Assembly (NCBI GenBank): GCA_041657405.1
Contig: JBBABX010000002.1
Location: 108,915 to 172,914, forward strand
Source of the DNA: Minisyncoccota bacterium
Lineage (GTDB): Bacteria > Patescibacteriota > Minisyncoccia > Phycocordibacterales > XYD1-FULL-46-19
Length of the DNA stretch: 64,000 bases
Direction: 5' to 3'
Shown: positions 44,636 through 63,278 of the stretch, one piece after another
Layout: each line of letters starts with the position of its first letter
Numbering within the stretch: the stretch's first letter is position 1
The notes under the pieces: generated by a model
What the model saw: only the letters and a program-made list of their open reading frames with translations
What the model was told of the DNA's origin: nothing
Databases searched by the model: none
Made by a program: the position numbers and the translations under genes

Positions 44636-45817
44636 ATGCCAAAAATCAACCCAGAAATTGAGTCCTTTGCCCGCATCAAAGTTATTGGTGTCGGCGGTTC
44701 CGGCACAAACGCCGTTAATCATATGGTTAACTCAAAAGTCCAAGGAGTGGAGTTTATTGTGATGAATACCGATGCCCAACATCTTCATCATTCACCTGCT
44801 AACAAAAAATTACATATTGGCAAGAACCTGACTCGCGGCTTAGGCACGGGTATGGATCCAGAGATTGGTCGTCGTGCCGCCGAAGAAAGTTTGGAAGATA
44901 TTCAAAATATGATTAAAGGCGCTGATATGGTTTTTATCTCTTGTGGTTTTGGTGGCGGAACTGGCACCGGTGCGGCTCCAATTATTGCCAAGGTCGCCAA
45001 AGAACAAGGGGCTCTTACGATCGGTGTAGTAACCAGACCTTTCTTTTTTGAAGGCAAACAACGCGCCAATATTGCCGAAAAAGGAATGGATGAATTAAAA
45101 AAAGAGGTTGACGCAATTATCGCCATTCCTAATGACCGCTTATTAGGAATCATTAGTAAAGATACGACTTGCACTTCGGCTTTTGCAATGTGTGATGAAA
45201 TTTTGCGACAAGCAGTAGAAGGTATTTCTAATATTATTACAATGCCTGGTATCATTAACGTAGATTTTGCTGATATCCGCGCAATTATGGCTAATGCTGG
45301 TTCAGCTTTGATGGGTATTGGAACTGCTTCAGGCGAAAATCGTGCAGTAGAAGCGGCTAAGGGAGCTATCAATTCCCCTCTCTTAGACATTTCTATCAAG
45401 GGTGCCAAGGGGGTTCTCTTTACTATTTCTGGCGGAGTCGATTTGACAATGTTTGAAATCCAAGAAACCGCCAAGGCCATTACTTCATCTATTGACCAAG
45501 AAGCCAAAGTTATTTTTGGCGCTATTCAAGATGACAAATTAAAGAAAAATGAAATCAAAGTTACCGTCATTGCTTGCGGTTTTCCAGAAATGGCAATTTC
45601 CCACCGCGACTCAATAGAAACAAACAATCAAATTCAAGAAGAAATAAAAAAAGGTGAGTCGGGAACAGTTAAAGAAAAAAATGAAGCTACTTCAGCCAAA
45701 GTTTCAGAACGACAAACCCAAAAGCCGTTGGTCTCAAACAAAACTGAAAAAACTATCGAGGAAGAAGAAGACGACTGGTCATCAATCCCCGCTTTTTTGC
45801 GTCGTGCTAAAAAATAA
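44636..45817 (+). CDS. ftsZ: cell division protein FtsZ
   Basis: IKVIGVGGSGTNAV; tubulin signature GGGTGTG; NTDAQ; T7-loop NVDFAD; C-terminal tail DDWSSIPAFLRR. Confidence 0.9.
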   Translation: MPKINPEIESFARIKVIGVGGSGTNAVNHMVNSKVQGVEFIVMNTDAQHLHHSPANKKLHIGKNLTRGLGTGMDPEIGRRAAEESLEDIQNMIKGADMVFISCGFGGGTGTGAAPIIAKVAKEQGALTIGVVTRPFFFEGKQRANIAEKGMDELKKEVDAIIAIPNDRLLGIISKDTTCTSAFAMCDEILRQAVEGISNIITMPGIINVDFADIRAIMANAGSALMGIGTASGENRAVEAAKGAINSPLLDISIKGAKGVLFTISGGVDLTMFEIQETAKAITSSIDQEAKVIFGAIQDDKLKKNEIKVTVIACGFPEMAISHRDSIETNNQIQEEIKKGESGTVKEKNEATSAKVSERQTQKPLVSNKTEKTIEEEEDDWSSIPAFLRRAKK

Positions 45818-47962: not shown

Positions 47963-48034
47963 GGCCCTATCGTCTAATGGCTAGGACATCACCCTTTCAC
48001 GGTGGTAATCGGGGTTCGACTCCCCGTAGGGTCA
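47963..48034 (+). tRNA. tRNA-Glu(TTC); 3' end is the attachment site of the downstream island
   Basis: Acceptor GGCCCTA/TAGGGTC, anticodon stem TCACC/GGTGG with loop CTTTCAC, T-loop GGTTCGACTCC. Confidence 0.85.
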
Positions 48035-48151
48035 CAATAGAGAGAGCTAGTTCGAGCACTCGACAAGGGTCGAAACTAGCAAACAAAAGCAAGTCAGAAA
48101 TGACTTGCTTTTGTTGTAGTTTAATACAACGATTTGTGATATAATATTTTC

Positions 48152-48359: not shown

Positions 48360-49814
48360 ATGTTCGAACAAGCATTCAAAAACATAGACGATATCTTACA
48401 CAAAGACGCTGGCGCATCCAGTGAACTTGATTATGTTGAACAAACATCATGGATCCTTTTCCTAAAATATCTTGATGACTTAGAGGCTGACCGAGCACTA
48501 GAGGCGAGCTTTATGAATAAGGAATATAAATATATCCTACCTTTACAGTTTCGTTGGAATATCTGGGCTTGCCCGAAAAATAAGGATGGCAAAATTGATC
48601 ATAATAAAGCTCTTACAGGAGATGATTTGAAAGATTTTGTTGATCAGAAACTATTCCCTTCACTCAAGAAGTTTAAAACTGATGCACTTAGTCCTGACAC
48701 GATTGAATACAAGATTGGAGAAATATTTAGTGAATTAAAAAACAAGATTCAAAGTGGCTATGCTTTGCGTGAGATTTTGAACATTGTTGATGCGATGCAT
48801 TTCCGATCACAAGAAGAAAAGCACGAGCTATCACATTTGTATGAAGGCAAAATCAAGAACATGGGTAATGCGGGACGAAATGGTGGTGAATATTACACTC
48901 CTCGCCCTCTCATTAAAACAATTGTGAACGTAGTTGGTCCAAAGATTGGCGACAAAATATATGACGGTGCTGTTGGATCGGCAGGATTCCTTGTTGAGGC
49001 TTTTGAATATTTGAAACAGAGCAAAGACTTGTCTACGAAAGACATGGAAATTCTCCAAAAGAAAACTTTCTACGGTAAGGAGAAAAAGTCACTTGCATAC
49101 ATTATCGGTATCATGAATATGATTTTGCATGGTATTGATGCCCCAAATATTATTCACACCAACACACTCGCTGAAAATCTTGCTGATATTCAGGAAAAAG
49201 ATAGATATGATGTGGTCCTTGCCAATCCTCCATTTGGTGGAAAAGAACGTACTGAAGTACAGCAAAACTTTCCAATTAAAACTGGTGAGACAGCGTTCCT
49301 GTTCCTTCAGCATTTTATAAAAATACTAAAAGCTGGTGGTAAAGCGGGTGTGGTTATCAAAAATACATTTCTATCAAATACAGATAATGCATCAGTATCG
49401 CTCCGAAAACATTTACTTGAAAGTTGTAACCTTCACACGGTCCTAGATCTTCCAGGTGGAACATTTACCGGTGCAGGAGTAAAAACAGTTATTTTATTTT
49501 TTGAAAAAGGTGCTCCAACTAAAAAGGTTTGGTACTACCAATTAAATCTCAGTAGAAATCTTGGGAAAACCAACCCTTTGAATGAAAAGGATCTTGCTGA
49601 TTTTATTGCTTTGCAAAAAACAAAAGCAGATTCAGATAATTCTTGGTCCATTGACGTTAAAGATGTTGATCAGAAGACTTTTGATTTGTCTGTGAAGAAT
49701 CCGAATAAGGGGGTTGAGGTTGTTTTGCGGGAGCCGAAGGGTATTTTGGTAGAAATGGAAAAACTTGATGCAGAAATCAAGAGCAATATATTGAGTATCA
49801 AAAAGCTTTTATAA
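48360..49814 (+). CDS. hsdM: Type I restriction-modification system methyltransferase subunit M
   Basis: HsdM N-terminal domain; SAM motif GSAGFL; catalytic LANPPFGG. Confidence 0.9.
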   Translation: MFEQAFKNIDDILHKDAGASSELDYVEQTSWILFLKYLDDLEADRALEASFMNKEYKYILPLQFRWNIWACPKNKDGKIDHNKALTGDDLKDFVDQKLFPSLKKFKTDALSPDTIEYKIGEIFSELKNKIQSGYALREILNIVDAMHFRSQEEKHELSHLYEGKIKNMGNAGRNGGEYYTPRPLIKTIVNVVGPKIGDKIYDGAVGSAGFLVEAFEYLKQSKDLSTKDMEILQKKTFYGKEKKSLAYIIGIMNMILHGIDAPNIIHTNTLAENLADIQEKDRYDVVLANPPFGGKERTEVQQNFPIKTGETAFLFLQHFIKILKAGGKAGVVIKNTFLSNTDNASVSLRKHLLESCNLHTVLDLPGGTFTGAGVKTVILFFEKGAPTKKVWYYQLNLSRNLGKTNPLNEKDLADFIALQKTKADSDNSWSIDVKDVDQKTFDLSVKNPNKGVEVVLREPKGILVEMEKLDAEIKSNILSIKKLL

Positions 49815-49818
49815 AAAT

Positions 49819-50043
49819 ATGAGTAATTCATTTTCAGAAAGACAAAAAATAATTGAGGTAAAAAGTCTAGATCTTCAAGACATGCCCATTGAAGTTAAGA
49901 ACAGGCTTTGGAATATTATTCAAGATTATATTGATAATAAATATCACGAGGGTCATGACCGTAACTTAATTATTGAATCTATTTGGGATAAATTTTTTAA
50001 ACAAAATAAAAATGATCTATGGGGTCAAACTAGTTATAGATAA
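49819..50043 (+). CDS. hypothetical protein inserted between hsdM and hsdS
   Basis: 74-aa ORF 4 nt after the hsdM stop. No motif recognised. Confidence 0.35.
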   Translation: MSNSFSERQKIIEVKSLDLQDMPIEVKNRLWNIIQDYIDNKYHEGHDRNLIIESIWDKFFKQNKNDLWGQTSYR

Positions 50044-50049
50044 AAATAT

Positions 50050-50640
50050 ATGGATTATTACCTAGGTCAAATTCAAGAGAGGTTTTATAAACTTGAGTGG
50101 AATCGCACCTATGATTTTTTGGAATTTATAATTTCTTCTGATAATTATGATCAGCGTAGAAATAATCTTGTCTGGCAGTTAAATCAGGTTTTTGATGAAG
50201 AAAAAATACCTTACAAAATAATTGATGGTCAAGTAACCCCACTAATTTCTGAGGAAGAATTAGAAGAGATTGATACAGCCCTAAACAGTAAGTATGATTT
50301 AGTCTCCAATCATCTAAGAAGGGCCCTCGAGTACTATAAAAAGAGACCAGAAGCCGACTATAAGAATTCAATAAAAGAATCAGTAAGTGCCGTCGAAGCA
50401 TTAGCGAAAATATTATTGAATAATCCACAAGGCACCTTAGGTAAACTTGCTGATGATCTAAACATTCACAGTGCTCTTAAGGAAGCTATAAAGAAAATAT
50501 ACGGATGGACTTCAGATGAGGGTGGTATAAGACACTCAGAAAAGAATGGACAAAAAAGTGTCGATATTGCTGAGGCTAGATATATGCTTGTCCATTGTTC
50601 CGCTCTTGTAAACTTTCTGATTTCAAAATATGAAAACTAA
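50050..50640 (+). CDS. hypothetical protein inserted in R-M operon (possible Abi/HEPN-like accessory)
   Basis: 196-aa helical protein with GWTSDEGGIRHSEKNGQ (R-H pair). Sits at a position where Abi/anticodon-nuclease genes occur in Type I loci. Confidence 0.35.
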   Translation: MDYYLGQIQERFYKLEWNRTYDFLEFIISSDNYDQRRNNLVWQLNQVFDEEKIPYKIIDGQVTPLISEEELEEIDTALNSKYDLVSNHLRRALEYYKKRPEADYKNSIKESVSAVEALAKILLNNPQGTLGKLADDLNIHSALKEAIKKIYGWTSDEGGIRHSEKNGQKSVDIAEARYMLVHCSALVNFLISKYEN

Positions 50641-51841
50641 TTGGCAAACAAAAAAACTCGGTGAGATTTGTGATATAGAGATTGGTAAAACCCCATCTCG
50701 ATCAAATAAAAAACTGTGGGATATTGAGAAAACAACTAAGAATGTCTGGTTGTCCATAAGAGATCTTTCAAATGCGGAAGATGGAATTATCTCTGATAGT
50801 AGAGAATATGTTTCTGATAAAGCTGCATCATCTTTATCGCTTGTTGAAAAGGGTACATTGTTGGTCAGCTTCAAACTCACTCTTGGCCGACTGGCATTTG
50901 CTGGTAAAGATTTATATACGAATGAGGCGATTGCTGCGCTAAATATTAAGGATGAAAAAGAAATATCTAGAGAATATCTATATCAGTATTTAAGTTATTT
51001 TGATTGGGATGCTGCAACAAAAGGTGATGTGAAAGTAAAAGGAAAAACTCTCAATAAAGCTAAATTAAAGGAAATTGAAATAGTATATCCACCACTCCCC
51101 GAACAAAAAAGGATAGTAAAAACTCTTGATGAGACATTCAAAAAACTAGAAAAAGCAAAAGAAATTACAGAAAAGAATTTAAGGAATTCAAAAGAGCTTT
51201 TCGACTCTTACTTGCAGGGAGTTTTCAATAGTCCAAATAGTAATTGGAAAGAGAAACGACTTGAGGAACTAGGCCAGATTACTTCTAGTAAGAGAATTTA
51301 CAAAAAAGAATACGTCACTCATGGTATTCCTTTTTACAGAATAAAAGAAATTAAAGAGCTTGCTCATGATAAAAAAATAACGATTGAGCTGTATATTTCA
51401 AAAGATAGATACAAAGAAATAAAGAATATTTTTGGTATACCCAAAGAGGGAGATATCTTAATGACAGCTGTGGGAACTATTGGTGAAATTTATGTGGTGA
51501 AAAAAGATGAGGAGTTTTACTTTAAAGATGGAAATATTCTCTGGTTTAAAAACTTCGATACTGTAGATCCAAATTTTCTAAAATATGCACTGATTTCCTT
51601 TGTTGAACAAATCAATAATCTTTCTAAAGGTTCTGCTTACAGTGCCCTAACGATAGAAAAAATCGAAAAACATAAGATATTTATACCTACTGACATAAAA
51701 GAACAAAAATCTATTGTTAAAAAACTCGACCATCTTTCTGAACAAACAAAAAATCTCGAATTAATTTATCAAAAGAAAATTTCTGCTATCGAGGAATTGA
51801 AAAGATCCATCCTAAGCAAAGCCTTCTCAAAGGGACTATAG
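50630..51841 (+). CDS. hsdS: Type I R-M specificity subunit S (two target-recognition domains)
   Basis: Duplicated TRD architecture with a conserved central repeat LPPLPEQKRIVKTLDE and coiled-coil spacers. Confidence 0.85.
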   Translation: MKTNWQTKKLGEICDIEIGKTPSRSNKKLWDIEKTTKNVWLSIRDLSNAEDGIISDSREYVSDKAASSLSLVEKGTLLVSFKLTLGRLAFAGKDLYTNEAIAALNIKDEKEISREYLYQYLSYFDWDAATKGDVKVKGKTLNKAKLKEIEIVYPPLPEQKRIVKTLDETFKKLEKAKEITEKNLRNSKELFDSYLQGVFNSPNSNWKEKRLEELGQITSSKRIYKKEYVTHGIPFYRIKEIKELAHDKKITIELYISKDRYKEIKNIFGIPKEGDILMTAVGTIGEIYVVKKDEEFYFKDGNILWFKNFDTVDPNFLKYALISFVEQINNLSKGSAYSALTIEKIEKHKIFIPTDIKEQKSIVKKLDHLSEQTKNLELIYQKKISAIEELKRSILSKAFSKGL

Positions 51842-51843
51842 TA

Positions 51844-54171
51844 TTGTATAATGTCAAGCATATGAACGAAGCAGAAACTAGAGCTGAATATATTGATCCG
51901 AAGCTAAAAGAATCTGGCTGGGGTGTCATCGAAGGATCCAAAGTCCTTCGAGAATTTCGTATATCTCCAGGGAAAATTCAAATCGGTGGTGCTCTACAAA
52001 AACCTGAAATTGCAGACTATGTCTTGGTATATAAAAACCGTAAGCTTGCGATTGTAGAAGCAAAGAAAGAGTCACTTGAATATACAGAAGGTGTTGCTCA
52101 AGCAAAGACATATGCTGGTAAACTTCAGATTGCTTATACATACTCTACAAATGGTCACGATATCTATGAGATAGGAATGCAAACAGGTCTCGAGGGACCA
52201 GTGAATAAATTTCCAACACCGGATGAACTCTGGGATAAGACTTATTCAGATCAAAATGCTTGGAAAGAAAAATTTACCAATGTCCCATTTGAAGACGTAA
52301 ACGGGAGTAAGAATGCTCGCTACTATCAAGAGATTGCCGTTAATCGTGTTATGGACGCTGTGGCAGAAGATAAGAAAAGAGTGTTGCTGACACTTGCAAC
52401 AGGTACGGGAAAAACTTTTATTGCTTTCCAAATTGCGTGGAAACTATTCCAGAGCAGATGGAATCTATCAAAAGACGGTGAAAGACGACCTCGTATACTT
52501 TTCCTAGCTGATAGAAACATACTTGCTGATCAAGCATTTAATGCCTTCGGTGCTTTTCCAGAAGATGCTTTGGTTCGTATAACTCCAAATGACATTCGTC
52601 GTAAAGGTGAGGTCCCAATGAACGGCAGTATCTTCTTTGCTATTTTCCAAACATTTATGAGCGGTCCAAATGACACTCCTTACTACGGTGATTATCCTTC
52701 AGACTATTTTGATTTCATTATTATTGATGAGTGTCACCGCGGTGGTGCAAATGATGAATCTAATTGGCGAGGTATTCTTGAATACTTCTCTCCTGCGGTC
52801 CAACTAGGTCTTACAGCTACTCCAAAACGAAAAGATAATACAGACACATATAAATATTTTGGTGATCCAGTCTATATATACTCTCTTAAGGAAGGTATAA
52901 ACGATGGATTCCTTACACCGTTCAAAGTCAAAAGAATCAAAACAACGCTTGATGAGTACATCTACACATCAGACGACATGATTGTTGAAGGTGAAGTAGA
53001 AGAAGGAAAGGTTTACAAAGAGGATGATTTTGCTCGTGGAAATATAAAAATTATTGAGCGAGAGGAATTTCGTGTTAAGACATTTTTGAAAGAAATAAAT
53101 CAAAATGAAAAAACTATCGTATTTTGTGCTACACAAGGTCATGCGCTTCTTGTTCGTGATTTGATAAATAAACATAAAGAAAATAAAGATCCAAATTATT
53201 GTCAGCGTGTTACTGCAAATGATGGTTTTCTTGGTGAACAATATCTAAGAGAGTTTCAAGATAACGAAAAGACCATCCCGACAATTTTGACTACATCACA
53301 AAAACTTTCTACAGGAGTAGATGCACGAAACATTCGAAATATTGTACTTATGCGACCAGTCAACTCAATGATTGAGTTTAAACAAATAGTTGGACGTGGC
53401 ACGAGACTGTTTGATGGTAAAGAATATTTCACAATTATAGATTTTGTAGATGCATATCATCATTTCCTAGATCCTGAATGGGATGGCGAACCGATTGATC
53501 AAACCACTGAAGAGGTTGAGCCGAAAGAACCAAAAGAGCCTAAGGAACCGAGAGAACCCGGACCAACACCTGAGCCACCAGAAGAACAACCAAGGAAGTT
53601 GAAAATCAAACTTCGTGATGGTAAAGAAAGAGAAATACAACATATGGTCCAAACATCTTTTTGGAGTGCTGATGGTAGACCAATTTCTACTGAAGAATTT
53701 TTGAATAATCTTTATGGAACCTTGCCTGATTTATTTAAAGATGAAAAACAATTAAGAGATATTTGGTCAAATCCACAAACTCGAAAGACTCTACTTGATA
53801 AACTTGGTGAACTTGGATATGGAAAAGATCAGCTTGAATCTATTCAAAAAATTATAAACGCTGAGAATAGTGATTTGTTCGATGTGCTTGGATATATTGC
53901 ATTTGCATTACAGCCTATTACTCGTGCAGAGAGAATTCAAAATACAAAGTACGACATCTTGGATGGTTTAGATGAAAAACATCGTGAGTTTATTGAATTC
54001 GTATTAGCTAAATATCAAGAGAGAGGTGTTGAAGAATTAGATGAAGAAAAACTCCCACAATTACTCAATCTCAAATATCACGCTATTTCTGATGCCGAGA
54101 AAAAACTTGGCGGAGTTAAATTGATCAGATCAAATTTCTTTACCTTTCAAAAGCATCTTTATTCAAAATAA
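51844..54171 (+). CDS. hsdR: Type I restriction enzyme R subunit (short, ~775 aa) with Pro/Glu/Lys-rich linker
   Basis: HsdR N-terminal nuclease region TRAEYIDPKL; helicase motif I LATGTGKTF; DEAH-like IIDECHRG; motif VI QIVGRGTR; EPKEPKEPKEPREPGP linker. Confidence 0.9.
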   Translation: MYNVKHMNEAETRAEYIDPKLKESGWGVIEGSKVLREFRISPGKIQIGGALQKPEIADYVLVYKNRKLAIVEAKKESLEYTEGVAQAKTYAGKLQIAYTYSTNGHDIYEIGMQTGLEGPVNKFPTPDELWDKTYSDQNAWKEKFTNVPFEDVNGSKNARYYQEIAVNRVMDAVAEDKKRVLLTLATGTGKTFIAFQIAWKLFQSRWNLSKDGERRPRILFLADRNILADQAFNAFGAFPEDALVRITPNDIRRKGEVPMNGSIFFAIFQTFMSGPNDTPYYGDYPSDYFDFIIIDECHRGGANDESNWRGILEYFSPAVQLGLTATPKRKDNTDTYKYFGDPVYIYSLKEGINDGFLTPFKVKRIKTTLDEYIYTSDDMIVEGEVEEGKVYKEDDFARGNIKIIEREEFRVKTFLKEINQNEKTIVFCATQGHALLVRDLINKHKENKDPNYCQRVTANDGFLGEQYLREFQDNEKTIPTILTTSQKLSTGVDARNIRNIVLMRPVNSMIEFKQIVGRGTRLFDGKEYFTIIDFVDAYHHFLDPEWDGEPIDQTTEEVEPKEPKEPKEPREPGPTPEPPEEQPRKLKIKLRDGKEREIQHMVQTSFWSADGRPISTEEFLNNLYGTLPDLFKDEKQLRDIWSNPQTRKTLLDKLGELGYGKDQLESIQKIINAENSDLFDVLGYIAFALQPITRAERIQNTKYDILDGLDEKHREFIEFVLAKYQERGVEELDEEKLPQLLNLKYHAISDAEKKLGGVKLIRSNFFTFQKHLYSK

Positions 54172-54176
54172 GAAAA

Positions 54177-55457
54177 TCAAGTAACCTTAATTGTCTTATT
54201 CTTCAAAACAAGCTCACTACTGATACATTCCAAGATAGATCTTTGCTCTAGCGGAGATCCTTCTTTCAGTACAAATTTTGTATAATCCTTTAGATCAATA
54301 GGTTCTATTTTCTCTGTCTTTTTCTTGCCCAAAAACATTGCTTGTAGCTTCTTAAACTTTTGAATTTCAACATCAAGCTTTGCAGTGAGTTTAACCTTGT
54401 TTATGTTCAAAGTATCAACCATATTAAGTAGTGATTCGATAAGTTCAGTTTCGTTCAGTGCAGGATTTTTACAATTCCTGTCTTTGGCTTTTGTGCATCG
54501 GTAATACACATGCCGATTAACTCCACCATTCAGCAACTTCTTAAACTTTTCATCCGCAGTAATACCTGATCCACAAACTCCACATTTCATAATTCGCGTA
54601 AAAGCAAATTCTTTACCTTGAGATTTAATAACTTGTGACTTGATAGAGTTTCTTGTCTCGTCAAACAATTCTTTAGAGATAATAGGTTTATGTTTTCCCT
54701 CATACCAAACACCTGATCCTTGTGGGAACTCAAAGCGACCATAGTAGAAAGTATTATTTATAATCTTGAATACATTTCCTAAACTTAGATGAAAACCTCT
54801 GTGAGTTTTAAAATCAAGATCATACCGTAACCATGCGTGTACTTTTGATACACTCCATTTTTCATAACTAATCTTCTCAAATATTTGTCGTATGGTATCA
54901 GCTCGTTCTGGATCAATTTCTACCTCACACTTTGCTAATCGTTGATTAGGCTTTCTATATCCTGTTGGTGGTTGTACTGGCCATAATCCCATTTCGCACC
55001 TAGCTCTCATACCACGCTTTACATTGATACTTTTATTATCGTTTTCGAGTTTTGCCTGACTACAAAGGATCATTAGCAGGAACTTATCACTTGGTGAATT
55101 AGAAAAAGTCTGACCAAAAGTTTTGATCTGAATTAGTTTCCTTTGATCCATTCTATCTACAAGTTTTCCGAGGTCACCTGCATTACGAGAAAGTCGATCA
55201 GGTGCCCATGTGATTATTCCGTTGAATATCCCCGTGTCGATATCTTTTACGATTTCCTCAAATACAGGTCTTTGTCCAGATTCTTTTGCAGAGTGGGATT
55301 CCTTGCGGATCTCAACAATGGTGAGATTTTCACGCTCGGCAATCTGCTTCATTTCTTTGATTTGAGAATCAATAGAAAGTGCTTGCTTTTCCTCTGCTTC
55401 GGTTGACTTACGAGCGTATAAGCAATACTTCATTTGGCTTTGTTCAACTTCTGTCAT
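54177..55457 (-). CDS. large serine recombinase (resolvase domain + recombinase domain + zinc ribbon)
   Basis: Catalytic-Ser N-terminus YARKSTEAEEKQALSIDSQ; recombinase domain; C4 zinc ribbon CGVCGS...YYRCTKAKDRNC. Confidence 0.85.
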   Translation of the reverse strand: MTEVEQSQMKYCLYARKSTEAEEKQALSIDSQIKEMKQIAERENLTIVEIRKESHSAKESGQRPVFEEIVKDIDTGIFNGIITWAPDRLSRNAGDLGKLVDRMDQRKLIQIKTFGQTFSNSPSDKFLLMILCSQAKLENDNKSINVKRGMRARCEMGLWPVQPPTGYRKPNQRLAKCEVEIDPERADTIRQIFEKISYEKWSVSKVHAWLRYDLDFKTHRGFHLSLGNVFKIINNTFYYGRFEFPQGSGVWYEGKHKPIISKELFDETRNSIKSQVIKSQGKEFAFTRIMKCGVCGSGITADEKFKKLLNGGVNRHVYYRCTKAKDRNCKNPALNETELIESLLNMVDTLNINKVKLTAKLDVEIQKFKKLQAMFLGKKKTEKIEPIDLKDYTKFVLKEGSPLEQRSILECISSELVLKNKTIKVT

Positions 55458-55793: not shown

Positions 55794-56396
55794 ATGAACG
55801 AAATAATTTATATCCTCATAAATGAAGCGATGCCTGGTTATGTGAAGATAGGTAAAACTTCCACAAGTTTAGAACAACGAATCCGAGAGTTAAGTTCTTC
55901 AACAAGTGTTCCTATCCCGTTTACATGTTTCTATGCTTGTACAGTAAAAAGTGCAACATTTGTTGAACAGCAACTACACGATGCATTCGATGACAGTCGT
56001 ATAAATCCACGAAGAGAATTCTTTCATATTTCACCAGAACGAGTGGTAGCCGCACTTAAACTTGCAGAGATAGAGAACATCACCCCAAAGAGAGACTTTG
56101 TAGAATCTAAGGAAGATCAAGAAGCCTTGAATCAGGCCCGCACACGACGATCTAAATTTAATTTTAGTATCGTGAATATTCCAGTCGGAGCTGAACTTGT
56201 GTTCAGTCGAGATGAAAATATTAAGGCTCGAGTTGTTGATAATAATGCAGTTGAGTTTAATGGAGAGATAACTAGCCTTTCTACTTCTGCTCAAAAGATA
56301 CTTGGCTACGATTACGGAGTGGCTGGAACAGACTACTGGATGTATGAAGACGAAACACTTGATGAACGGAGAAGAAGAATTGAGACAGAGGAATAG
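55794..56396 (+). CDS. GIY-YIG nuclease superfamily protein (T5orf172/DUF4357-like)
   Basis: IIYILINEAMPGYVKIGKTS...EQRIREL...H..F...R...REFFHISPE fits the T5orf172 GIY-YIG pattern. Confidence 0.6.
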   Translation: MNEIIYILINEAMPGYVKIGKTSTSLEQRIRELSSSTSVPIPFTCFYACTVKSATFVEQQLHDAFDDSRINPRREFFHISPERVVAALKLAEIENITPKRDFVESKEDQEALNQARTRRSKFNFSIVNIPVGAELVFSRDENIKARVVDNNAVEFNGEITSLSTSAQKILGYDYGVAGTDYWMYEDETLDERRRRIETEE

Positions 56397-56409: not shown

Positions 56410-56994
56410 CTACATTGATGGAATATCAGACTCTTTAGGTTTTTTTATCTTTGGTGGCTTTTTTCCAGTTTTTTCGTATTCTTTCATCCATTCCTCAAAT
56501 ATTTCCTGTGCTCTATATTCATTCGGCTTATTAAGAACACCTCTCCATTTATCCAGAAATTCCACCGCATTTTTTCCTGCTTGTTCTTGTTTTTTCTTTT
56601 CTTCTTCTGTAACAGTGTTTCGTATATTCTGCTCGATTTCGCGTTGTCTAACCCCTTCCATTGTGGAACGGAAATGCGTGATCAAATCATCAGAATCAAC
56701 TTTGAACACATATGGTCTTCTGAAATCAGGGTGCTTATGACTTAACCAATACTTTGTATACATGGTGTCTTTTCTCTTGATACCTTCAAGTACATTACTA
56801 AGAGCAACATCACTAACAAGACCGACACCAAGCGACATAGCTTCATTTATTCGAACGAGAAATTTATGATCCTCTTTCATCCAGCGATAGAAAGTATTTC
56901 TTGAAATACCAATCTTATCACAAGCGATCTGAATGACTGGTGTTTTCTCAATCTCTTCCGCGAGTTTATTAAGCAGTGCCTGTGTCTTTTTCAT
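56410..56994 (-). CDS. HTH protein resembling phage terminase small subunit
   Basis: N-terminal HTH IQIACDKIGISRNTFYRWMKED; basic/acidic C-terminus with a KKPPKIKKPK tail. Confidence 0.4.
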   Translation of the reverse strand: MKKTQALLNKLAEEIEKTPVIQIACDKIGISRNTFYRWMKEDHKFLVRINEAMSLGVGLVSDVALSNVLEGIKRKDTMYTKYWLSHKHPDFRRPYVFKVDSDDLITHFRSTMEGVRQREIEQNIRNTVTEEEKKKQEQAGKNAVEFLDKWRGVLNKPNEYRAQEIFEEWMKEYEKTGKKPPKIKKPKESDIPSM

Positions 56995-58252
56995 AAATCG
57001 CCTTACAACCTGTCAGCTTCTCGTACCTACATACGATCAAGTCACAGAAAACTTCAGAAAGCTCGCACCCATACACCCTTCGACCAAGAGCTTGCGCAGA
57101 AATAAGAGTGCTACCCGAACCAAGAAAGCTGTCCAGAATGATGTCATGGGGCTTCGTACAGCGTTTTATGGCTTTCTCATGGAGCTGTGGAGGTTTAGAT
57201 GTTGCATGTTCGTATTCCTTTGCAGGCAATCGTTTAGCCATCCAAACATCGTTAATTTCTTCAAGTAAGTCATTACCAGTACTTAATTCTTTATTAAGAA
57301 CCTCATTGAGATTTTTAATATTTGAAAGGTATGGTTTTCCACGAATACCGTATACAACAGGCTCATATACTTTATTAAACGCCACAGACGGAACGGGGTT
57401 CTGATTGTTTTTTAACCATAAACACACTCGTTTGTTGGCAATACCTAAAGAGCGATATAGATCCTGAACTACTCCGATATACACCTGATCACACCAGTAA
57501 AATACATGAGTATCTTTATTTGAAACAGCGAGAGCGGCCTCCATGCTGTCTTTCAAAAACTTTTTATACTCATCAAAACTTCTAGTGTCATTCACATTTC
57601 CACCATAATCTTTCTTGCCTCCAATACCACCATCGTAGTCTACGGAAATGTTATAAACTGGATCGCTATAGATCATGCTTGCTCGGTCATTACCAAGCAG
57701 ACGAACAAGGTTGTTTTTATCCGTAGAATCTCCACAAAGGATGCGATGATTTCCGAGAATGATAATGTCACCAAGTTTAGTTTTTGGATTCTTGATTTTC
57801 TTTAGTTCTTTTTCGACATCAAAATCGTCTCCCGTAACTTCTTTTTTGGTGTCCATAAGTTCGCCGATTTCAATCGGGTCGAAACCTGCAAACTCCAACG
57901 TCTCGAAATCGAATGATTTGAGTAAACCAAAATCCCAATCACCGCCAAGCTTATTGGAAGCGATCAAGTACTCTTTTGATTCCTTTTCCGTAAGCTTACG
58001 GTTGGGTACACGAATATCAATAAGCTCTTCACCTCGACCGATGAGTTGCAGAGCTTTTATTCGCTGATGACCAGCGAGAATTGTGCCGTCTTTGTCGACA
58101 GCGGGTATCTCAACAAGGTTATACTTCTTGAGACTTCTAGTAAGATCCGACATTTGCTTGTCGGTAATAACACGAGGATTGATCTTTTGAGGGATAAGAT
58201 CATTAACCCGTTTTTGGACTGTAGTCCAAGATAGTTTTTTCATAAGTAACAA
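56969..58252 (-). CDS. ParB-like nuclease domain fused to beta-class N6A/N4C DNA methyltransferase (orphan MTase)
   Basis: ParB-N box LVEIPAVDKDGTILAGHQRIKAL; motif IV SDPVY (DPPY variant); C-terminal motif I ILDSFLGSGST. Confidence 0.75.
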   Translation of the reverse strand: MLLMKKLSWTTVQKRVNDLIPQKINPRVITDKQMSDLTRSLKKYNLVEIPAVDKDGTILAGHQRIKALQLIGRGEELIDIRVPNRKLTEKESKEYLIASNKLGGDWDFGLLKSFDFETLEFAGFDPIEIGELMDTKKEVTGDDFDVEKELKKIKNPKTKLGDIIILGNHRILCGDSTDKNNLVRLLGNDRASMIYSDPVYNISVDYDGGIGGKKDYGGNVNDTRSFDEYKKFLKDSMEAALAVSNKDTHVFYWCDQVYIGVVQDLYRSLGIANKRVCLWLKNNQNPVPSVAFNKVYEPVVYGIRGKPYLSNIKNLNEVLNKELSTGNDLLEEINDVWMAKRLPAKEYEHATSKPPQLHEKAIKRCTKPHDIILDSFLGSGSTLISAQALGRRVYGCELSEVFCDLIVCRYEKLTGCKAIYEKDTGTA

Positions 58253-58695: not shown

Positions 58696-61600
58696 ATGCA
58701 ATTTTTAGATAAAGAATGGTCAAAAAAGCACTTAGAGGATATCAAAAAGAAAGCTGATAAGCGTTACACACCAGAATTAAATGTTGAGCTTCCTATATCT
58801 GAGATTTTTGACGGACTTGGTCGTACTAAGGCTTTTTATACAACGGTGCAATCTCACTACGGGAAACTTTTTAAAAGATTTAGGTCAATAACCAGTGTTT
58901 ATAAAAATAGAAAAATTCAAAGAACATTTAATTCTTTTGCTCGAAATGTAAAAGAGCTATTAGATATTCTAGAAAACGTAAAGAAGTACGAGACAACACA
59001 GATCCCGTGGAAAAAAATTAATTCGCTTGCTGAAAAATCACAGTCTTATTCTTGGAAACTTTCTGACCAAATTAGAAAGGAAAAAGAAAAACCTGTCCAA
59101 AAAGAATTGCTTAAACCAGAAGAACCTTATACTTATCCAAGAACCAATGCTGATATATTCAACTCTGATCTACACGATATAACAGAAGTTCAAAGGGAGC
59201 TTAGATTTTTTATAGACTTTAGTAAAAGCACTTCCGCAGAAACTTCAAATAGACCATTTCTGTTGGTTAATGGACTAGCCGGATCTGGCAAGACACACTT
59301 GCTGTGTGATTTGGTTAAACATCGAATTGATAAGGGCTACGCTCCTACTGTTCTAAGCTTCGGTGAATTTTTTGAAGGCAGTGATGATATTTGGTTCAAA
59401 ATGGCCAAACAGTTTGGGTTGAATCCCGTAAAATGGAATAAGGACAAAATACTAAAAGAACTTGATAATAAGGGTAAGTCTACAAAAAGCAGGTCAATCT
59501 TAATGATTGATGCTTTAAATGAATCGAGGCCATTATCTTTTTGGAACAGTAAACTTAAAAAGCTTCTTGCTGATATTCGCAAATATCCAAATGTGGCTCT
59601 CGTAGCAACTATCCGTTCAGGTTTTGAGAAAGATGTAATAAATGAAAATGTTAAGAAACAATTTACCCAAGAAGAGCATCGGGGCTTTGAATTTCAAGAA
59701 TGGGAAGCTGTAACAAAATTCTTTAAAGAGTTTTCATTACCCCTTCCAGAAATCCCTCTCTTAACTCCTGAGTTTCAAAATCCGCTTTTCCTTCTATTAT
59801 TTTGCAAAGCATTTGAGAACACAGCCGGAAAGAAACAGAAAAAGTCATTCAAAGGTCAGGAAGGTGCTACACATATTTTTGAAAAGTATGTTGATTCGGT
59901 CTCAAAGAAAATTGAGAAAAAGTTTAAAATTGATCACGGGCCAGGAAAGAATATCTGGGATACGGTAATAGAAAAGATTGCCGAACAAATGGTTAATAAA
60001 AATGTAGACAGATTATTTGCGGATGATATTTTGAAGTTAATCAAAAAAGCTCACCCTGCACTTGGTGAAAGTACTCTTTTAGATGATTGCGAAAAGAACT
60101 TTTTACTGGTTAAAGTTCCACATTATGTACCAGAAACAGGTACTTCAGCAGGCTTTGATTATCGTTTTCCTTTCCAGAGGTTTAGTGACCATTTAGTCGG
60201 AAGATCTCTTTTTAAGAAGTATGAAAAGGAGTTTGGTAAAACAAACAAAAATATTTCCACTGCAACTAAATTCTTTTCAAAAAGAAGGAAGCTAGGAAAA
60301 TTTTTAAGTCGTGGAATTAACCGAGGAATCATAGAAGCTCTATTTATTCAGTGTCCTGAACAACTCAAAGGTGTTGAGTTTTTTGAGGTGGCTCCACATG
60401 TAAAGGACTACCTAGCTAAAGATGCTTTTGTTCAAAGTATCGTATGGAGACAACCATCAGCATTTTCTTCAGATCTTAAAAAACCACTCGAATTTATAAA
60501 TAGAAGAATATTAGCATTTGGAGACGGAAACTCAGCAATCTTAAACGCTTTTCTATCTGTAGCCGTCGTTCCCTCACATCCATTTAATGCAGAATTTCTC
60601 CATAAGCATTTAATGAAGATGAAGATGCCAGCCAGAGATGCTTGGTGGTCAGTGTTTCTTCATGACGAACACAAAGACAGAAACGCAGTAGATCGACTGC
60701 TTAAGTGGAGTTGGTCTGATCAAGAATTATGCCATCTCACAGACGACTCAATCTTTTTAACCGCGATTACGCTTGCTTGGTTCTTAACTACACCGAACCG
60801 TTTTGTTAGAGACAAGGCGACTAAAGGTTTAGTGACTCTGCTACAAAATAGATTAAACCTCGTTAAAAGGCTTTTGGAAAAGTTTGAGAACGTAGATGAC
60901 CCTTATATTACGGAGCGATTATTCGCTGTTGCCTATGGGAGTATTCTTAGAAACCAAAAAGATACAGCTAATATAAAAACCATAGCTGTTTATACCTACA
61001 ACAAGTTTTTTAAGAGCAACAGACCACCTGTACATGCTTTGATTCGAGATTATGCTCGTGGAATTATTGAAGCCGCTAGACTAAACAAAATTAATTTCCG
61101 TCATTCCATTAAGAATACCGAACCCCCTTATCAGAGTACTTGGCCTACCAAAATACCTAGTAAGAAAACCTTAAATAAAAAATATAGTTTGGAGGATTAT
61201 TCCATAACAGAAAATAGTTTCCGTAGTGTCTGGTCATCATTAACCTTTGATGATTTTGGTAGGTACGAAATTGAATCACATCTTGGCTATTGGTCTGGAA
61301 GAAAATTAAACGTGGCAGAACCTGATAGAAAGGAAATATATAAAAAATTTAAGAGTGGTTTAACGAAGAAACAAAATGATTTGTTGGGCAAGGCAACTAA
61401 TATATTCTTTGGGATAAACATTAATAAAATAATGGCTCAAGTTAGGTTTGTAACCCCGGGGGAAAATAACGAAGTGGATGAGAAAGAAGAAAAAAAGAAC
61501 GAAGCGAAAGCAAAGAAAGAGAGAAAAGAACTTCTTGTAAACTTCAAGAATTCACTAAGTTTTAAAAAGCGTAAATATTTTGAAACAGAAATAGAGCCTT

Positions 61601-62838
61601 TTCTCGACGACCGTGGGTCTATTGAGGATCCTCGTGAGCGTTTTGATACCTCCCTTGCTCCAAGATGGATATTTAATCGTGTTATAGAGCTAGGTTACGA
61701 CCCAGAAATTCATGGAAAGTTTGATAATCGAGTTAACCGCTATGATAGTAGTGGCAGATCAAACCATAAAGCAGAGAGAATTGGTAAAAAATATCAGTGG
61801 ATTGCTTTGCATGAATTTACTGCCTTAGTAGCAGACCATTTTGAATTTACAGGTCGATACTGGGGCAGAAGTGGAGGAAAATATCTTGGCGCATGGAACC
61901 CATACATTAGGGATATAGATCCATCTTTGCTCATACAAAATGACAACAAAATAAAAGCAGAAGCAGAATTTAAAAATTGGAATAGTGGTCATGGAAAATA
62001 TGACGGTTGGTTGAAAGAAAGGAGTGATACGAAGTGGCTCCAAAAGAAATCCGATTTGCCTGATCCAAGAGAGATAATCAATATTACGGATGATACTGGT
62101 AGAAATTGGCTAGCTCTTAAAGGTATATTTGTTTGGCAACAAGAAACCCCACCAGAGCGAGAAAAATATGATTATCCTACTCGTGAATTGTTTTATATCT
62201 TAAAGAGCTTTATTGTCAAAAAGAAAGACTTAAAAAAGATTACTACTTGGGTAAAAAGCAAGGGCTTTGGTAATTGGTTGCCTGAATCAAATAACTGGTA
62301 CGAAACATTTATAGGTGAATTTCCAAATTCATCCTCCTTCGAAGATATGCGTGGCGACTTTAATGTATGGACTAAATCAAGTGATAAAGCTGTAGAAATA
62401 AGCAAGATTCCTTTGGTAGTGACTGACGATGGCTATTTAAATGAATTTACTCTCGATTGCTCGAGAGATGAAGGTATATCTATAATGCTTCCCTCAAAAT
62501 TCATTGTTAAAAAAATGAAATTGAAACAACCTGAGTTGGATGGAAGATTTCGAGATAAAAAAGGAAAGGTGGTAATGTACGCAACGAGTGTTTCTGAAGA
62601 AAACACACCTTCTGCGCTTATAGCTGACAAAAAAGAATTTTTAGAATTTTTGAATAAAAACGGATTAGCAGTCTTCTGGACTTTACTAGCAGAAAAGCAG
62701 TTTATTGGAGGAAGTAGATCGGGAATGGACGGATATAAAGGACGGTTGGAAACTTCTGGAATTTATTACTTTGACTCCAAAGACAGACTAAAAGGAACTA
62801 TGAATTCGAAATTTGATTCACCAAAGAAGAAATCCTAA
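58696..62838 (+). CDS. 1380-aa STAND/NACHT-like P-loop NTPase with long C-terminal helical region (candidate antiphage defence protein)
   Basis: Walker A LLVNGLAGSGKTHLL at ~aa 195; Walker B ILMIDALNE; sensor-like VALVATIRSG; about 1000-aa C-terminal region of unknown function. Located in a mobile island beside the R-M system. Confidence 0.55.
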   Translation: MQFLDKEWSKKHLEDIKKKADKRYTPELNVELPISEIFDGLGRTKAFYTTVQSHYGKLFKRFRSITSVYKNRKIQRTFNSFARNVKELLDILENVKKYETTQIPWKKINSLAEKSQSYSWKLSDQIRKEKEKPVQKELLKPEEPYTYPRTNADIFNSDLHDITEVQRELRFFIDFSKSTSAETSNRPFLLVNGLAGSGKTHLLCDLVKHRIDKGYAPTVLSFGEFFEGSDDIWFKMAKQFGLNPVKWNKDKILKELDNKGKSTKSRSILMIDALNESRPLSFWNSKLKKLLADIRKYPNVALVATIRSGFEKDVINENVKKQFTQEEHRGFEFQEWEAVTKFFKEFSLPLPEIPLLTPEFQNPLFLLLFCKAFENTAGKKQKKSFKGQEGATHIFEKYVDSVSKKIEKKFKIDHGPGKNIWDTVIEKIAEQMVNKNVDRLFADDILKLIKKAHPALGESTLLDDCEKNFLLVKVPHYVPETGTSAGFDYRFPFQRFSDHLVGRSLFKKYEKEFGKTNKNISTATKFFSKRRKLGKFLSRGINRGIIEALFIQCPEQLKGVEFFEVAPHVKDYLAKDAFVQSIVWRQPSAFSSDLKKPLEFINRRILAFGDGNSAILNAFLSVAVVPSHPFNAEFLHKHLMKMKMPARDAWWSVFLHDEHKDRNAVDRLLKWSWSDQELCHLTDDSIFLTAITLAWFLTTPNRFVRDKATKGLVTLLQNRLNLVKRLLEKFENVDDPYITERLFAVAYGSILRNQKDTANIKTIAVYTYNKFFKSNRPPVHALIRDYARGIIEAARLNKINFRHSIKNTEPPYQSTWPTKIPSKKTLNKKYSLEDYSITENSFRSVWSSLTFDDFGRYEIESHLGYWSGRKLNVAEPDRKEIYKKFKSGLTKKQNDLLGKATNIFFGININKIMAQVRFVTPGENNEVDEKEEKKNEAKAKKERKELLVNFKNSLSFKKRKYFETEIEPFLDDRGSIEDPRERFDTSLAPRWIFNRVIELGYDPEIHGKFDNRVNRYDSSGRSNHKAERIGKKYQWIALHEFTALVADHFEFTGRYWGRSGGKYLGAWNPYIRDIDPSLLIQNDNKIKAEAEFKNWNSGHGKYDGWLKERSDTKWLQKKSDLPDPREIINITDDTGRNWLALKGIFVWQQETPPEREKYDYPTRELFYILKSFIVKKKDLKKITTWVKSKGFGNWLPESNNWYETFIGEFPNSSSFEDMRGDFNVWTKSSDKAVEISKIPLVVTDDGYLNEFTLDCSRDEGISIMLPSKFIVKKMKLKQPELDGRFRDKKGKVVMYATSVSEENTPSALIADKKEFLEFLNKNGLAVFWTLLAEKQFIGGSRSGMDGYKGRLETSGIYYFDSKDRLKGTMNSKFDSPKKKS

Positions 62839-63258: not shown

Positions 63259-63278
63259 CGACTCCCCGTAGGGTCACA
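63259..63278. repeat. attR-like 20-bp direct repeat of tRNA-Glu 3' end
   Basis: Identical to 48018-48037. Confidence 0.8.

Follow-up and report, generated by a model that had tools for sequence, protein, structure and literature searches.

Two open reading frames between hsdM and hsdS of a Type I restriction-modification operon very probably represent a conserved two-cistron version of an AbiJ-NTD4/HEPN-like candidate defence gene

The AbiJ-NTD4 domain was defined by Anantharaman et al. as a domain fused to HEPN domains of the AbiJ family (PMC3710099). The same authors noted that HEPN genes occur inside restriction-modification (R-M) operons, and in 2013 they proposed that AbiJ-type N-terminal domains restrain the HEPN toxin and sense phage (PMC3710099). 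Payne et al. found defence functions to be over-represented among genes lying within BREX, DISARM and Type I R-M systems, and they gave such candidates the name PDCs (bioRxiv 10.1101/2024.01.29.577857). The embedding of abortive-infection (Abi) and HEPN genes in Type I R-M operons is already established, and the family that we describe here is already known. The present analysis concerns a stretch of 64,000 nt (the window; positions 108,915 to 172,914 of contig JBBABX010000002.1, assembly GCA_041657405.1), in which two open reading frames (ORFs), ORF1 of 74 aa and ORF2 of 196 aa, are wedged between the hsdM and hsdS genes of a Type I R-M operon. We conclude with high confidence that these ORFs together make up a candidate defence gene of the AbiJ-NTD4/HEPN-like type, conserved in a two-cistron version. 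New here are the stable split inside the presumed sensor domain and a non-canonical R-H motif.

One architecture carried on two cistrons

Firstly, two profiles are each divided between the two ORFs. On the Pfam profile AbiJ_NTD4 (PF18863, 152 positions, cut-off 34 bits), ORF1 covers positions 2-63 with 38.3 bits and ORF2 covers positions 74-152 with 56.7 bits (E=5e-15). On the PADLOC profile PDC-S32 (285 positions), ORF1 covers positions 8-79 (E=6.8e-9) and ORF2 positions 86-281 (E=2.6e-71), which means that a full-length match to a profile modelling a single gene is spread over two ORFs. Secondly, a search with the fused sequence as query retrieved 198 relatives (best E-value 1e-124), among which single-chain proteins of 262-290 aa, 49-58% identical to the fused query, align with it from end to end (100%). 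Intact single-chain relatives are in the majority. Because the profile coverage of the two ORFs is complementary and the single-chain relatives align over the full length, each ORF corresponds to one half of a single known architecture, in which an AbiJ-NTD4 domain precedes a C-terminal effector domain. The pair shares with the single-chain AbiJ-NTD4 plus HEPN proteins (PF18863; prototype CBY_0614; PDC-S32) its homology over the whole length, its domain order and the invariant sequence TSDEGGIRH, and these proteins are, likewise, often embedded in Type I R-M operons. It differs from them in being encoded by two cistrons, with the cut inside the NTD4 domain.

The PDC-S32 family is widespread, with at least 588 confirmed matches in a genome scan, and stand-alone ORF1 homologues of 60-86 aa form at least 13 clusters. 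The NCBIfam model STM4504/CBY_0614 gave only a weak match (17.8 bits versus a cut-off of 150), and the family therefore belongs to a different subfamily from the prototype CBY_0614. The PHROGs profile library returned no match for the ORF pair, and a profile search of PDB sequences gave nothing below E=0.4.

A previous reading of the locus, made from the sequence only, had described two ORFs of 74 and 196 aa inserted between hsdM and hsdS, and both their coordinates and their spacing were borne out by the ORF list and the sequence: ORF1 starts 4 nt after hsdM, ORF2 follows ORF1 after 6 nt, and the overlap of ORF2 with the start of hsdS amounts to 11 nt. That reading also guessed that the inserted genes were an embedded Abi or anticodon-nuclease module of the PrrC/RloC kind. 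The first part of this guess is upheld by the homology to AbiJ_NTD4 and PDC-S32. The second part is not, since no PrrC/RloC or ABC-ATPase domain was matched in Pfam, NCBIfam or PADLOC, and ORFs of 74 and 196 aa are too short. Judged by homology, the proposal that the Type I operon harbours an Abi module bearing a HEPN-like motif was essentially right, and homology likewise supports the suggestion that the two proteins might form a complex. A correction is required, however: on the evidence of the profiles and alignments, the ORFs are halves of one known single-chain architecture and not two different proteins.

To locate the cut in the structure, we used an AlphaFold2 model of an intact homologue, P0004, which is 57% identical to the fused query (mean predicted local distance difference test score (pLDDT) 90.6, predicted template-modelling score (pTM) 0.78). 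The N-terminal domain of this model comprises helices 24-39 and 47-58, a hairpin with strands 68-70 and 75-77, helices spanning 80-123, a second hairpin, and helix 141-151; the C-terminal domain comprises helices 156-169, 177-196, 203-209, 214-228 and 246-267. The cut maps to the turn of the first beta-hairpin (P0004 residues 68-77), within the N-terminal domain, so that ORF1 corresponds to two helices and the first strand of the hairpin. The end of ORF1 (GQT-SYR) maps onto the first strand and the turn, and the start of ORF2 (MDYY) onto the second strand. Because the two new chain ends map to paired strands, they would lie next to each other, and an interchain hairpin could form. When ORF2 was modelled alone its fold was kept (pLDDT 85.5), with helices at residues 5-50, a hairpin at 55-64 and a helix at 68-78. 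The pLDDT of the first 40 residues, however, was 70-87, where the same region of the intact model has 91-97, and it dropped below 50 at residues 1-3. This lowered N-terminal confidence is consistent with, although it does not prove, a dependence of ORF2 on ORF1 in the models.

Stability and origin of the split

An assembly or sequencing error can be ruled out, because the identical 74+196 arrangement is carried by four independent assemblies derived from different samples (L001-L004). A relative at 82% identity shows the same 74+196 layout and the same spacing (P0002 locus, gene table). Many of the closest relatives are proteins of 195-209 aa whose Met start lies exactly at position 78 of the fused query, and every ORF2-only relative inspected, either at the DNA level or in a gene table, has an AbiJ_NTD4 ORF of 67-85 aa immediately upstream, the one at L176 being truncated by the contig end. 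The split loci inspected were those of the window lineage, P0002, the P0036 group, L090, L091, L092, L093, L094, L169, L170, L172, L174, L175 and L176.

At least 11 diverged lineages, which are 45-82% identical, are cut at the same point and have a proper ATG there. The junctions themselves differ: the window has TAA followed by 6 nt, and the other types are TAA+4, TGATG, an ATGA overlap, TAA+8, TAA+5, TAA+16, TAG+7 and TAA+12. All three relative reading frames occur among them; the in-frame arrangement is present in the window clade and in L176, and most split lineages have a +1/+2 frame or an ATGA overlap. Because junctions and frames vary among lineages, a shared readthrough or frameshift signal and a recent nonsense mutation are both excluded. 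In addition, purifying selection has acted on ORF1 as well as on ORF2 since the split, with ratios of nonsynonymous to synonymous substitution rates (dN/dS) of 0.16-0.21 for ORF1 and 0.07-0.12 for ORF2 in comparisons among three relatives at unsaturated dS (0.43-0.75).

These results bear on two explanations in which the split would have no biological meaning of its own. The first holds that a single-chain gene was recently killed by a nonsense mutation, leaving ORF1 as a remnant and ORF2 as an accidental ORF. The fact that the window ORFs lie in frame with one TAA between them agrees with such a scenario, and irregular, pseudogene-like disruptions do exist in the family. It is, however, contradicted by the recurrence of the same cut with differing junctions and frames, by the selection acting on both pieces, by the identical junction in the four assemblies and by the layout retained in the relative at 82% identity, and we regard it as extremely improbable. 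The second explanation, programmed readthrough or recoding of the TAA that yields a fused 273-aa protein, has in its favour that ORF1 and ORF2 share one frame, a point missed by the sequence-only reading: positions 49819-50640 translate as a 273-codon frame with one TAA inside, which is followed by the codons K-Y and then by the Met of ORF2, and substitution of this single stop codon would fuse the genes, as it would in the in-frame pair of L176. Since most split lineages are out of frame or overlap, readthrough is not the conserved mechanism. Moreover, TAA is the stop codon of 34 of the 45 genes in the window (TAG of seven and TGA of four), and none of the nine tRNAs of the window is a suppressor tRNA. 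Readthrough is thus contradicted as well and has just as little probability as a dead gene. An alternative genetic code or a recoding of TAA was rejected on the basis of the same stop usage and tRNA set.

Some family members are disrupted elsewhere in the gene by frameshifts or stops, with no proper restart codon (L051, L081, L115, L132, L138/L142 and L158). Unlike the regular split at the hairpin, these irregular disruptions are probably ordinary pseudogenes or sequencing errors.

Did the split arise once? On neighbour-joining (NJ) trees built from the C-terminal 196 residues, eight changes are required to account for the split state; across 60 NJ bootstraps the number is 5-12 (mode 7-8), versus about 31 when the states are shuffled. 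On these trees, which are weak (196 columns), the split state is clustered and not monophyletic. A single origin is not supported by the bootstraps, again with the weakness of the trees in mind. On the one hand, fission or fusion may have occurred repeatedly at the same hairpin; on the other hand, the pattern may equally be a product of weak trees. All canonical splits observed belong to the branch that is at least 45% identical to the query, and there were none among the 80 GTDB genome loci examined. The G+C content of the split loci is low (0.30-0.37, with one at 0.45).

The HEPN-like domain and a proposed mode of action

The C-terminal domain is, by its predicted fold, HEPN-like, a four-helix up-down bundle. 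With the intact model, the top consistent Foldseek matches were the HEPN proteins 1wol (probability 0.97), 2q00, 4nqf, 2hsb and 7ae6, and with the ORF2 model HEPN matches were obtained to 1ufb (probability 0.99, template-modelling (TM) score 0.65 on target length), 2hsb and 1wol. Overall, the HEPN fold matches had probabilities of 0.75-0.99 and TM scores of up to 0.65 on target length. A fold search of the viral structures in BFVD gave no meaningful match.

The family carries the signature Y-G-[WY]-T-S-D-E-G-G-I-R-H, in which R161 and H162 are invariant: all 120 sequences that are not gapped at these columns carry them. Both residues lie in the loop that precedes the last helix. HEPN domains bear an Rx4-6H catalytic motif before their last helix. 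The segment GIRHSE (ORF2 residues 159-164; GGIRH at 50521-50535) had been put forward as a possible HEPN-like motif. This holds in so far as GIRH forms the invariant core of the family motif and the C-terminal half is HEPN-like by fold; it does not hold for the motif as such, as the R and H are adjacent, which is non-canonical. In SadR, a HEPN RNase with an Abi_C domain, the motif is RNEYGDAH, and mutation of its R, N or H abolishes both RNase activity and defence (PMC13590631). AbiJ of Lactococcus and SadR of S. aureus resemble the window family in having a C-terminal helical domain of HEPN type and a phage-defence context. They differ from it in three respects: they have an R-polar-x3-5-H motif, whereas the window family has an adjacent R-H and no distal His; the similarity of the window protein to Abi_C is below threshold; and the N-terminal domains are unlike.

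Based on these data, we consider it probable, although by no means as firmly as the identification of the pair itself, that the two ORFs encode a two-chain Abi RNase that backs up the R-M system, reassembled from a naturally split AbiJ-NTD4 plus HEPN-like protein. ORF1 and ORF2 would be made together from an HTH-hsdM-ORF1-ORF2-hsdS-hsdR transcript. The last strand of ORF1 would then pair with the first strand of ORF2, and this complementation of hairpin and helices would rebuild the NTD4 domain and yield a two-chain protein that works like its single-chain relatives. The NTD4 domain may sense an infection cue and control the HEPN-like domain. By analogy with HEPN proteins of the AbiJ/SadR type, phage infection would switch on a latent RNase, RNA would be cleaved and the infected cell would be stopped, so that the pair could act as a second line of defence when Type I restriction fails.

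Several observations weigh against the assignment of an RNase function. The Foldseek E-values of the HEPN matches are non-significant (0.25-1). The Pfam model Abi_C (PF14355) is matched below its gathering score (E=0.043; 14.4 bits versus 24), with Abi_C E-values of 0.01 or lower for just 3 of the 84 family members. The canonical Rx4-6H is absent, in that the family alignment contains no conserved His 4-6 residues after R161, and H182 of the window protein is not conserved; because the adjacent R-H replaces the canonical motif, RNase activity is an assumption. Finally, the literature holds no experimental test of any member of the NTD4 subfamily.

PrrC and RloC provide a conceptual parallel, being RNA-targeting suicide modules that reside in a Type I operon and guard the R-M system, with RNA targeting putative in the case of the window pair. 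The difference lies in the ABC-ATPase domain, which the window proteins do not have; masking of the pair by the R-M complex is also not evidenced.

Could the two cistrons instead work as a switch of the toxin-antitoxin (TA) type? According to this explanation, the 74-aa ORF1 product is a separable inhibitor, or lid, of an ORF2 HEPN toxin, and the RNase is freed either when this inhibitor is lost, being turned over once host translation stops, or when a phage factor captures it. The gene order, with a small upstream ORF, a larger HEPN ORF downstream and 4-nt ATGA overlaps in some lineages, is that of type II TA systems. Abi N-terminal domains have been proposed to be antitoxins that restrain the HEPN domain (Anantharaman et al., PMC3710099), and ORF1 evolves faster than ORF2 (dN/dS about 0.2 versus 0.1). 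On the other hand, ORF1 is not an independent domain but part of one compact fold in the intact model (pTM 0.78), and no DNA-binding or known antitoxin domain was found in it with Pfam, NCBIfam or PHROGs. In addition, since single-chain relatives are in the majority, a separable inhibitor is not required for function. Type II TA systems that have HEPN toxins (HEPN-MNT) share with the window pair a small upstream ORF tightly coupled to a downstream ORF with a HEPN domain, but ORF1 is neither a nucleotidyltransferase nor a DNA-binding antitoxin, being a structural fragment of a domain that is completed by ORF2. We therefore judge a TA-like role of ORF1 to be rather unlikely, although it is the strongest of the competing explanations; a role as an R-M accessory, discussed below, ranks behind it, and a pseudogene or readthrough comes last.

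R-M neighbourhoods, candidate island and implications

The features of the locus are listed in Table 1. The Type I operon is complete, with Pfam matches indicating that hsdM, hsdS and hsdR are all intact. It is headed by a regulator gene that lies 1 nt 5' of hsdM, and the position of this 68-aa HTH_3 protein is analogous to that of C-proteins and of RptR (PMC12255303). A promoter and terminator scan gave no signals above the shuffled expectation, and Shine-Dalgarno motifs are nearly absent 5' of the start codons of the 45 genes of the window.

Table 1. Coordinates of the operon, the ORF pair and the candidate island (window positions)
Feature	Position	Strand	Evidence or remark
Left copy of exact 20-nt direct repeat CGACTCCCCGTAGGGTCACA, at 3' end of tRNA-Glu (47963-48035)	48017-48036	+	candidate boundary
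HTH_3 (Cro/C1-type) regulator, 68 aa	48152-48358	+	Pfam HTH_3 E=6e-19; PADLOC Control_protein/HTH matches
hsdM, Type I methyltransferase subunit	48360-49814	+	Pfam N6_Mtase E=3e-63, HsdM_N
ORF1, 74 aa	49819-50043	+	Pfam AbiJ_NTD4, PADLOC PDC-S32
ORF1/ORF2 junction: TAA (50041-50043), 6 nt AAATAT, ATG of ORF2	50041-50052	+	
ORF2, 196 aa	50050-50640	+	Pfam AbiJ_NTD4, PADLOC PDC-S32
ORF2 residues 1-80, C-terminal piece of AbiJ-NTD4 domain	50050-50289	+	Pfam AbiJ_NTD4 E=5e-15
ORF2 residues 81-196, HEPN-like four-helix effector domain (by fold)	50290-50640	+	Foldseek HEPN matches
TSDEGGIRH family signature, ORF2 residues 154-162	50509-50535	+	
hsdS, specificity subunit, two target-recognition domains	50630-51841	+	Pfam Methylase_S E=1e-38, two stretches
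hsdR, restriction/translocase subunit	51844-54171	+	Pfam ResIII, EcoEI_R_C, HSDR_N
Large serine recombinase, directly after hsdR	54177-55457	-	Pfam Resolvase, Recombinase, Zn_ribbon_recom
T5orf172/MUG113 (GIY-YIG-like) protein	55794-56396	+	
194-aa protein	56410-56994	-	no Pfam match
427-aa ParB-like/N6_N4 DNA methyltransferase with N-terminal extension	56969-58252	-	
1380-aa STAND-like NTPase	58696-62838	+	weak matches nSTAND6, NPHP3_N
Right copy of 20-nt repeat CGACTCCCCGTAGGGTCACA	63259-63278	+	candidate right boundary

We examined loci with sufficient flanking DNA for Type I genes located within 6 kb on the same strand; Hsd detection was home-made, and the resulting counts are lower bounds. 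Type I genes were found near 9 of 15 split loci and 18 of 71 intact loci, and none were detected near the other 53 intact loci. Both the order M-[gene]-S-R and the order M-S-[gene]-R occur. In the window, in L005 and in L170 the split pair occupies the interval from hsdM to hsdS, and hsdS follows the pair in L176. The ORF2 proteins of these four loci are 50-65% identical, whereas HsdM, HsdS and HsdR of the window share only 21-29% identity with their counterparts at the other loci, and the HsdR proteins of split-pair operons belong to different Type I families. The idea that hsdS travels with the pair as one cassette was rejected, the HsdS proteins being 21-28% identical. Split pairs with no R-M genes nearby are found at L169 and L172, and at L175 (160-3197; GCA_037439925.1, JBBIVD010000176.1) the pair stands after a Type II R-M cassette. 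Because it occurs in unrelated Type I operons, beside a Type II system or with no R-M genes, the pair is a mobile module that favours R-M neighbourhoods, and not a fixed accessory.

These data also bear on the possibility that the pair is not an independent defence module but an accessory of the Type I system, for instance a factor in HsdM/HsdS assembly or a modulator of restriction alleviation. Its tight packing between hsdM and hsdS, with an overlap into hsdS, in four unrelated operons speaks for such a role. Yet the pair exists with no Type I genes or beside a Type II system, most intact loci have no Type I genes detected within 6 kb, and conservation is far higher in the pair than in the Hsd proteins on either side, which makes an accessory role decidedly unlikely. 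The sequence-only reading had itself named an HsdM C-terminal extension and a frameshifted N-terminus of hsdS as alternatives; neither applies.

Other two-gene defence cassettes are known among hsd genes. TgvAB and DarTG2 are, like the window pair, located in Type I operons headed by a small HTH regulator (PMC11411939, PMC12255303), but their proteins are unrelated and their cassettes lie between hsdS and hsdR.

The Type II cassette at L175 consists of an HTH regulator, an N6_N4 methylase and an endonuclease of the MjaV family. A DUF3800 gene adjoins the split pair in two lineages, L005-L008 (e.g. L005 2101-3490) and L174 (238-1155). In L005-L008 there is an additional 165-aa ORF of unknown function, and L005 has several more small genes between hsdS and hsdR, one of them GIY-YIG-like. 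Operons of the L005 type accumulate multiple embedded genes.

In the window, the two copies of an exact 20-nt repeat have unrelated flanks and lie about 15.2 kb apart, as in an att-like duplication. The segment that they bracket contains the R-M operon with the split pair, the recombinase, the T5orf172 protein, the methyltransferase and the STAND-like NTPase, and it is probably a defence island integrated at tRNA-Glu. There is no tyrosine integrase in the 15.2-kb segment, and the large serine recombinase is located in its middle. The 1380-aa protein may be an Avs-like or another STAND defence gene, and the 194-aa and 427-aa genes overlap by 26 nt. The FtsZ protein encoded in the window (44636-45817) shares 70-74% identity with proteins that bear the names Patescibacteria, Paceibacterota or Vogelbacteria. 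Judging by its genes, the host is a bacterium of the candidate phyla radiation (CPR) with the standard genetic code.

A bolder proposal, to which we assign a slightly lower likelihood than to the TA-like role of ORF1 and which is thus unlikely, is that the NTD4 hairpin is a recurrent point of fission and fusion, and that the 74-aa fragment is a lid or sensor that can come off, so that a HEPN RNase of the non-canonical R-H type is activated when the fragment is lost or captured during infection. If true, a single-chain Abi protein would have been converted naturally into a TA-like switch. The split form lets the two pieces be expressed apart or together, with no need for protein engineering, and it provides a handle on the 2013 proposal of Anantharaman et al. 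Current views are not overturned by the locus. It documents a cassette that hops among unrelated Type I operons and enters the same slot between hsdM and hsdS, an R-H dyad in place of Rx4-6H in the HEPN-like domain of the family, and layered defence in Patescibacteria (CPR) on a small, tRNA-linked island.

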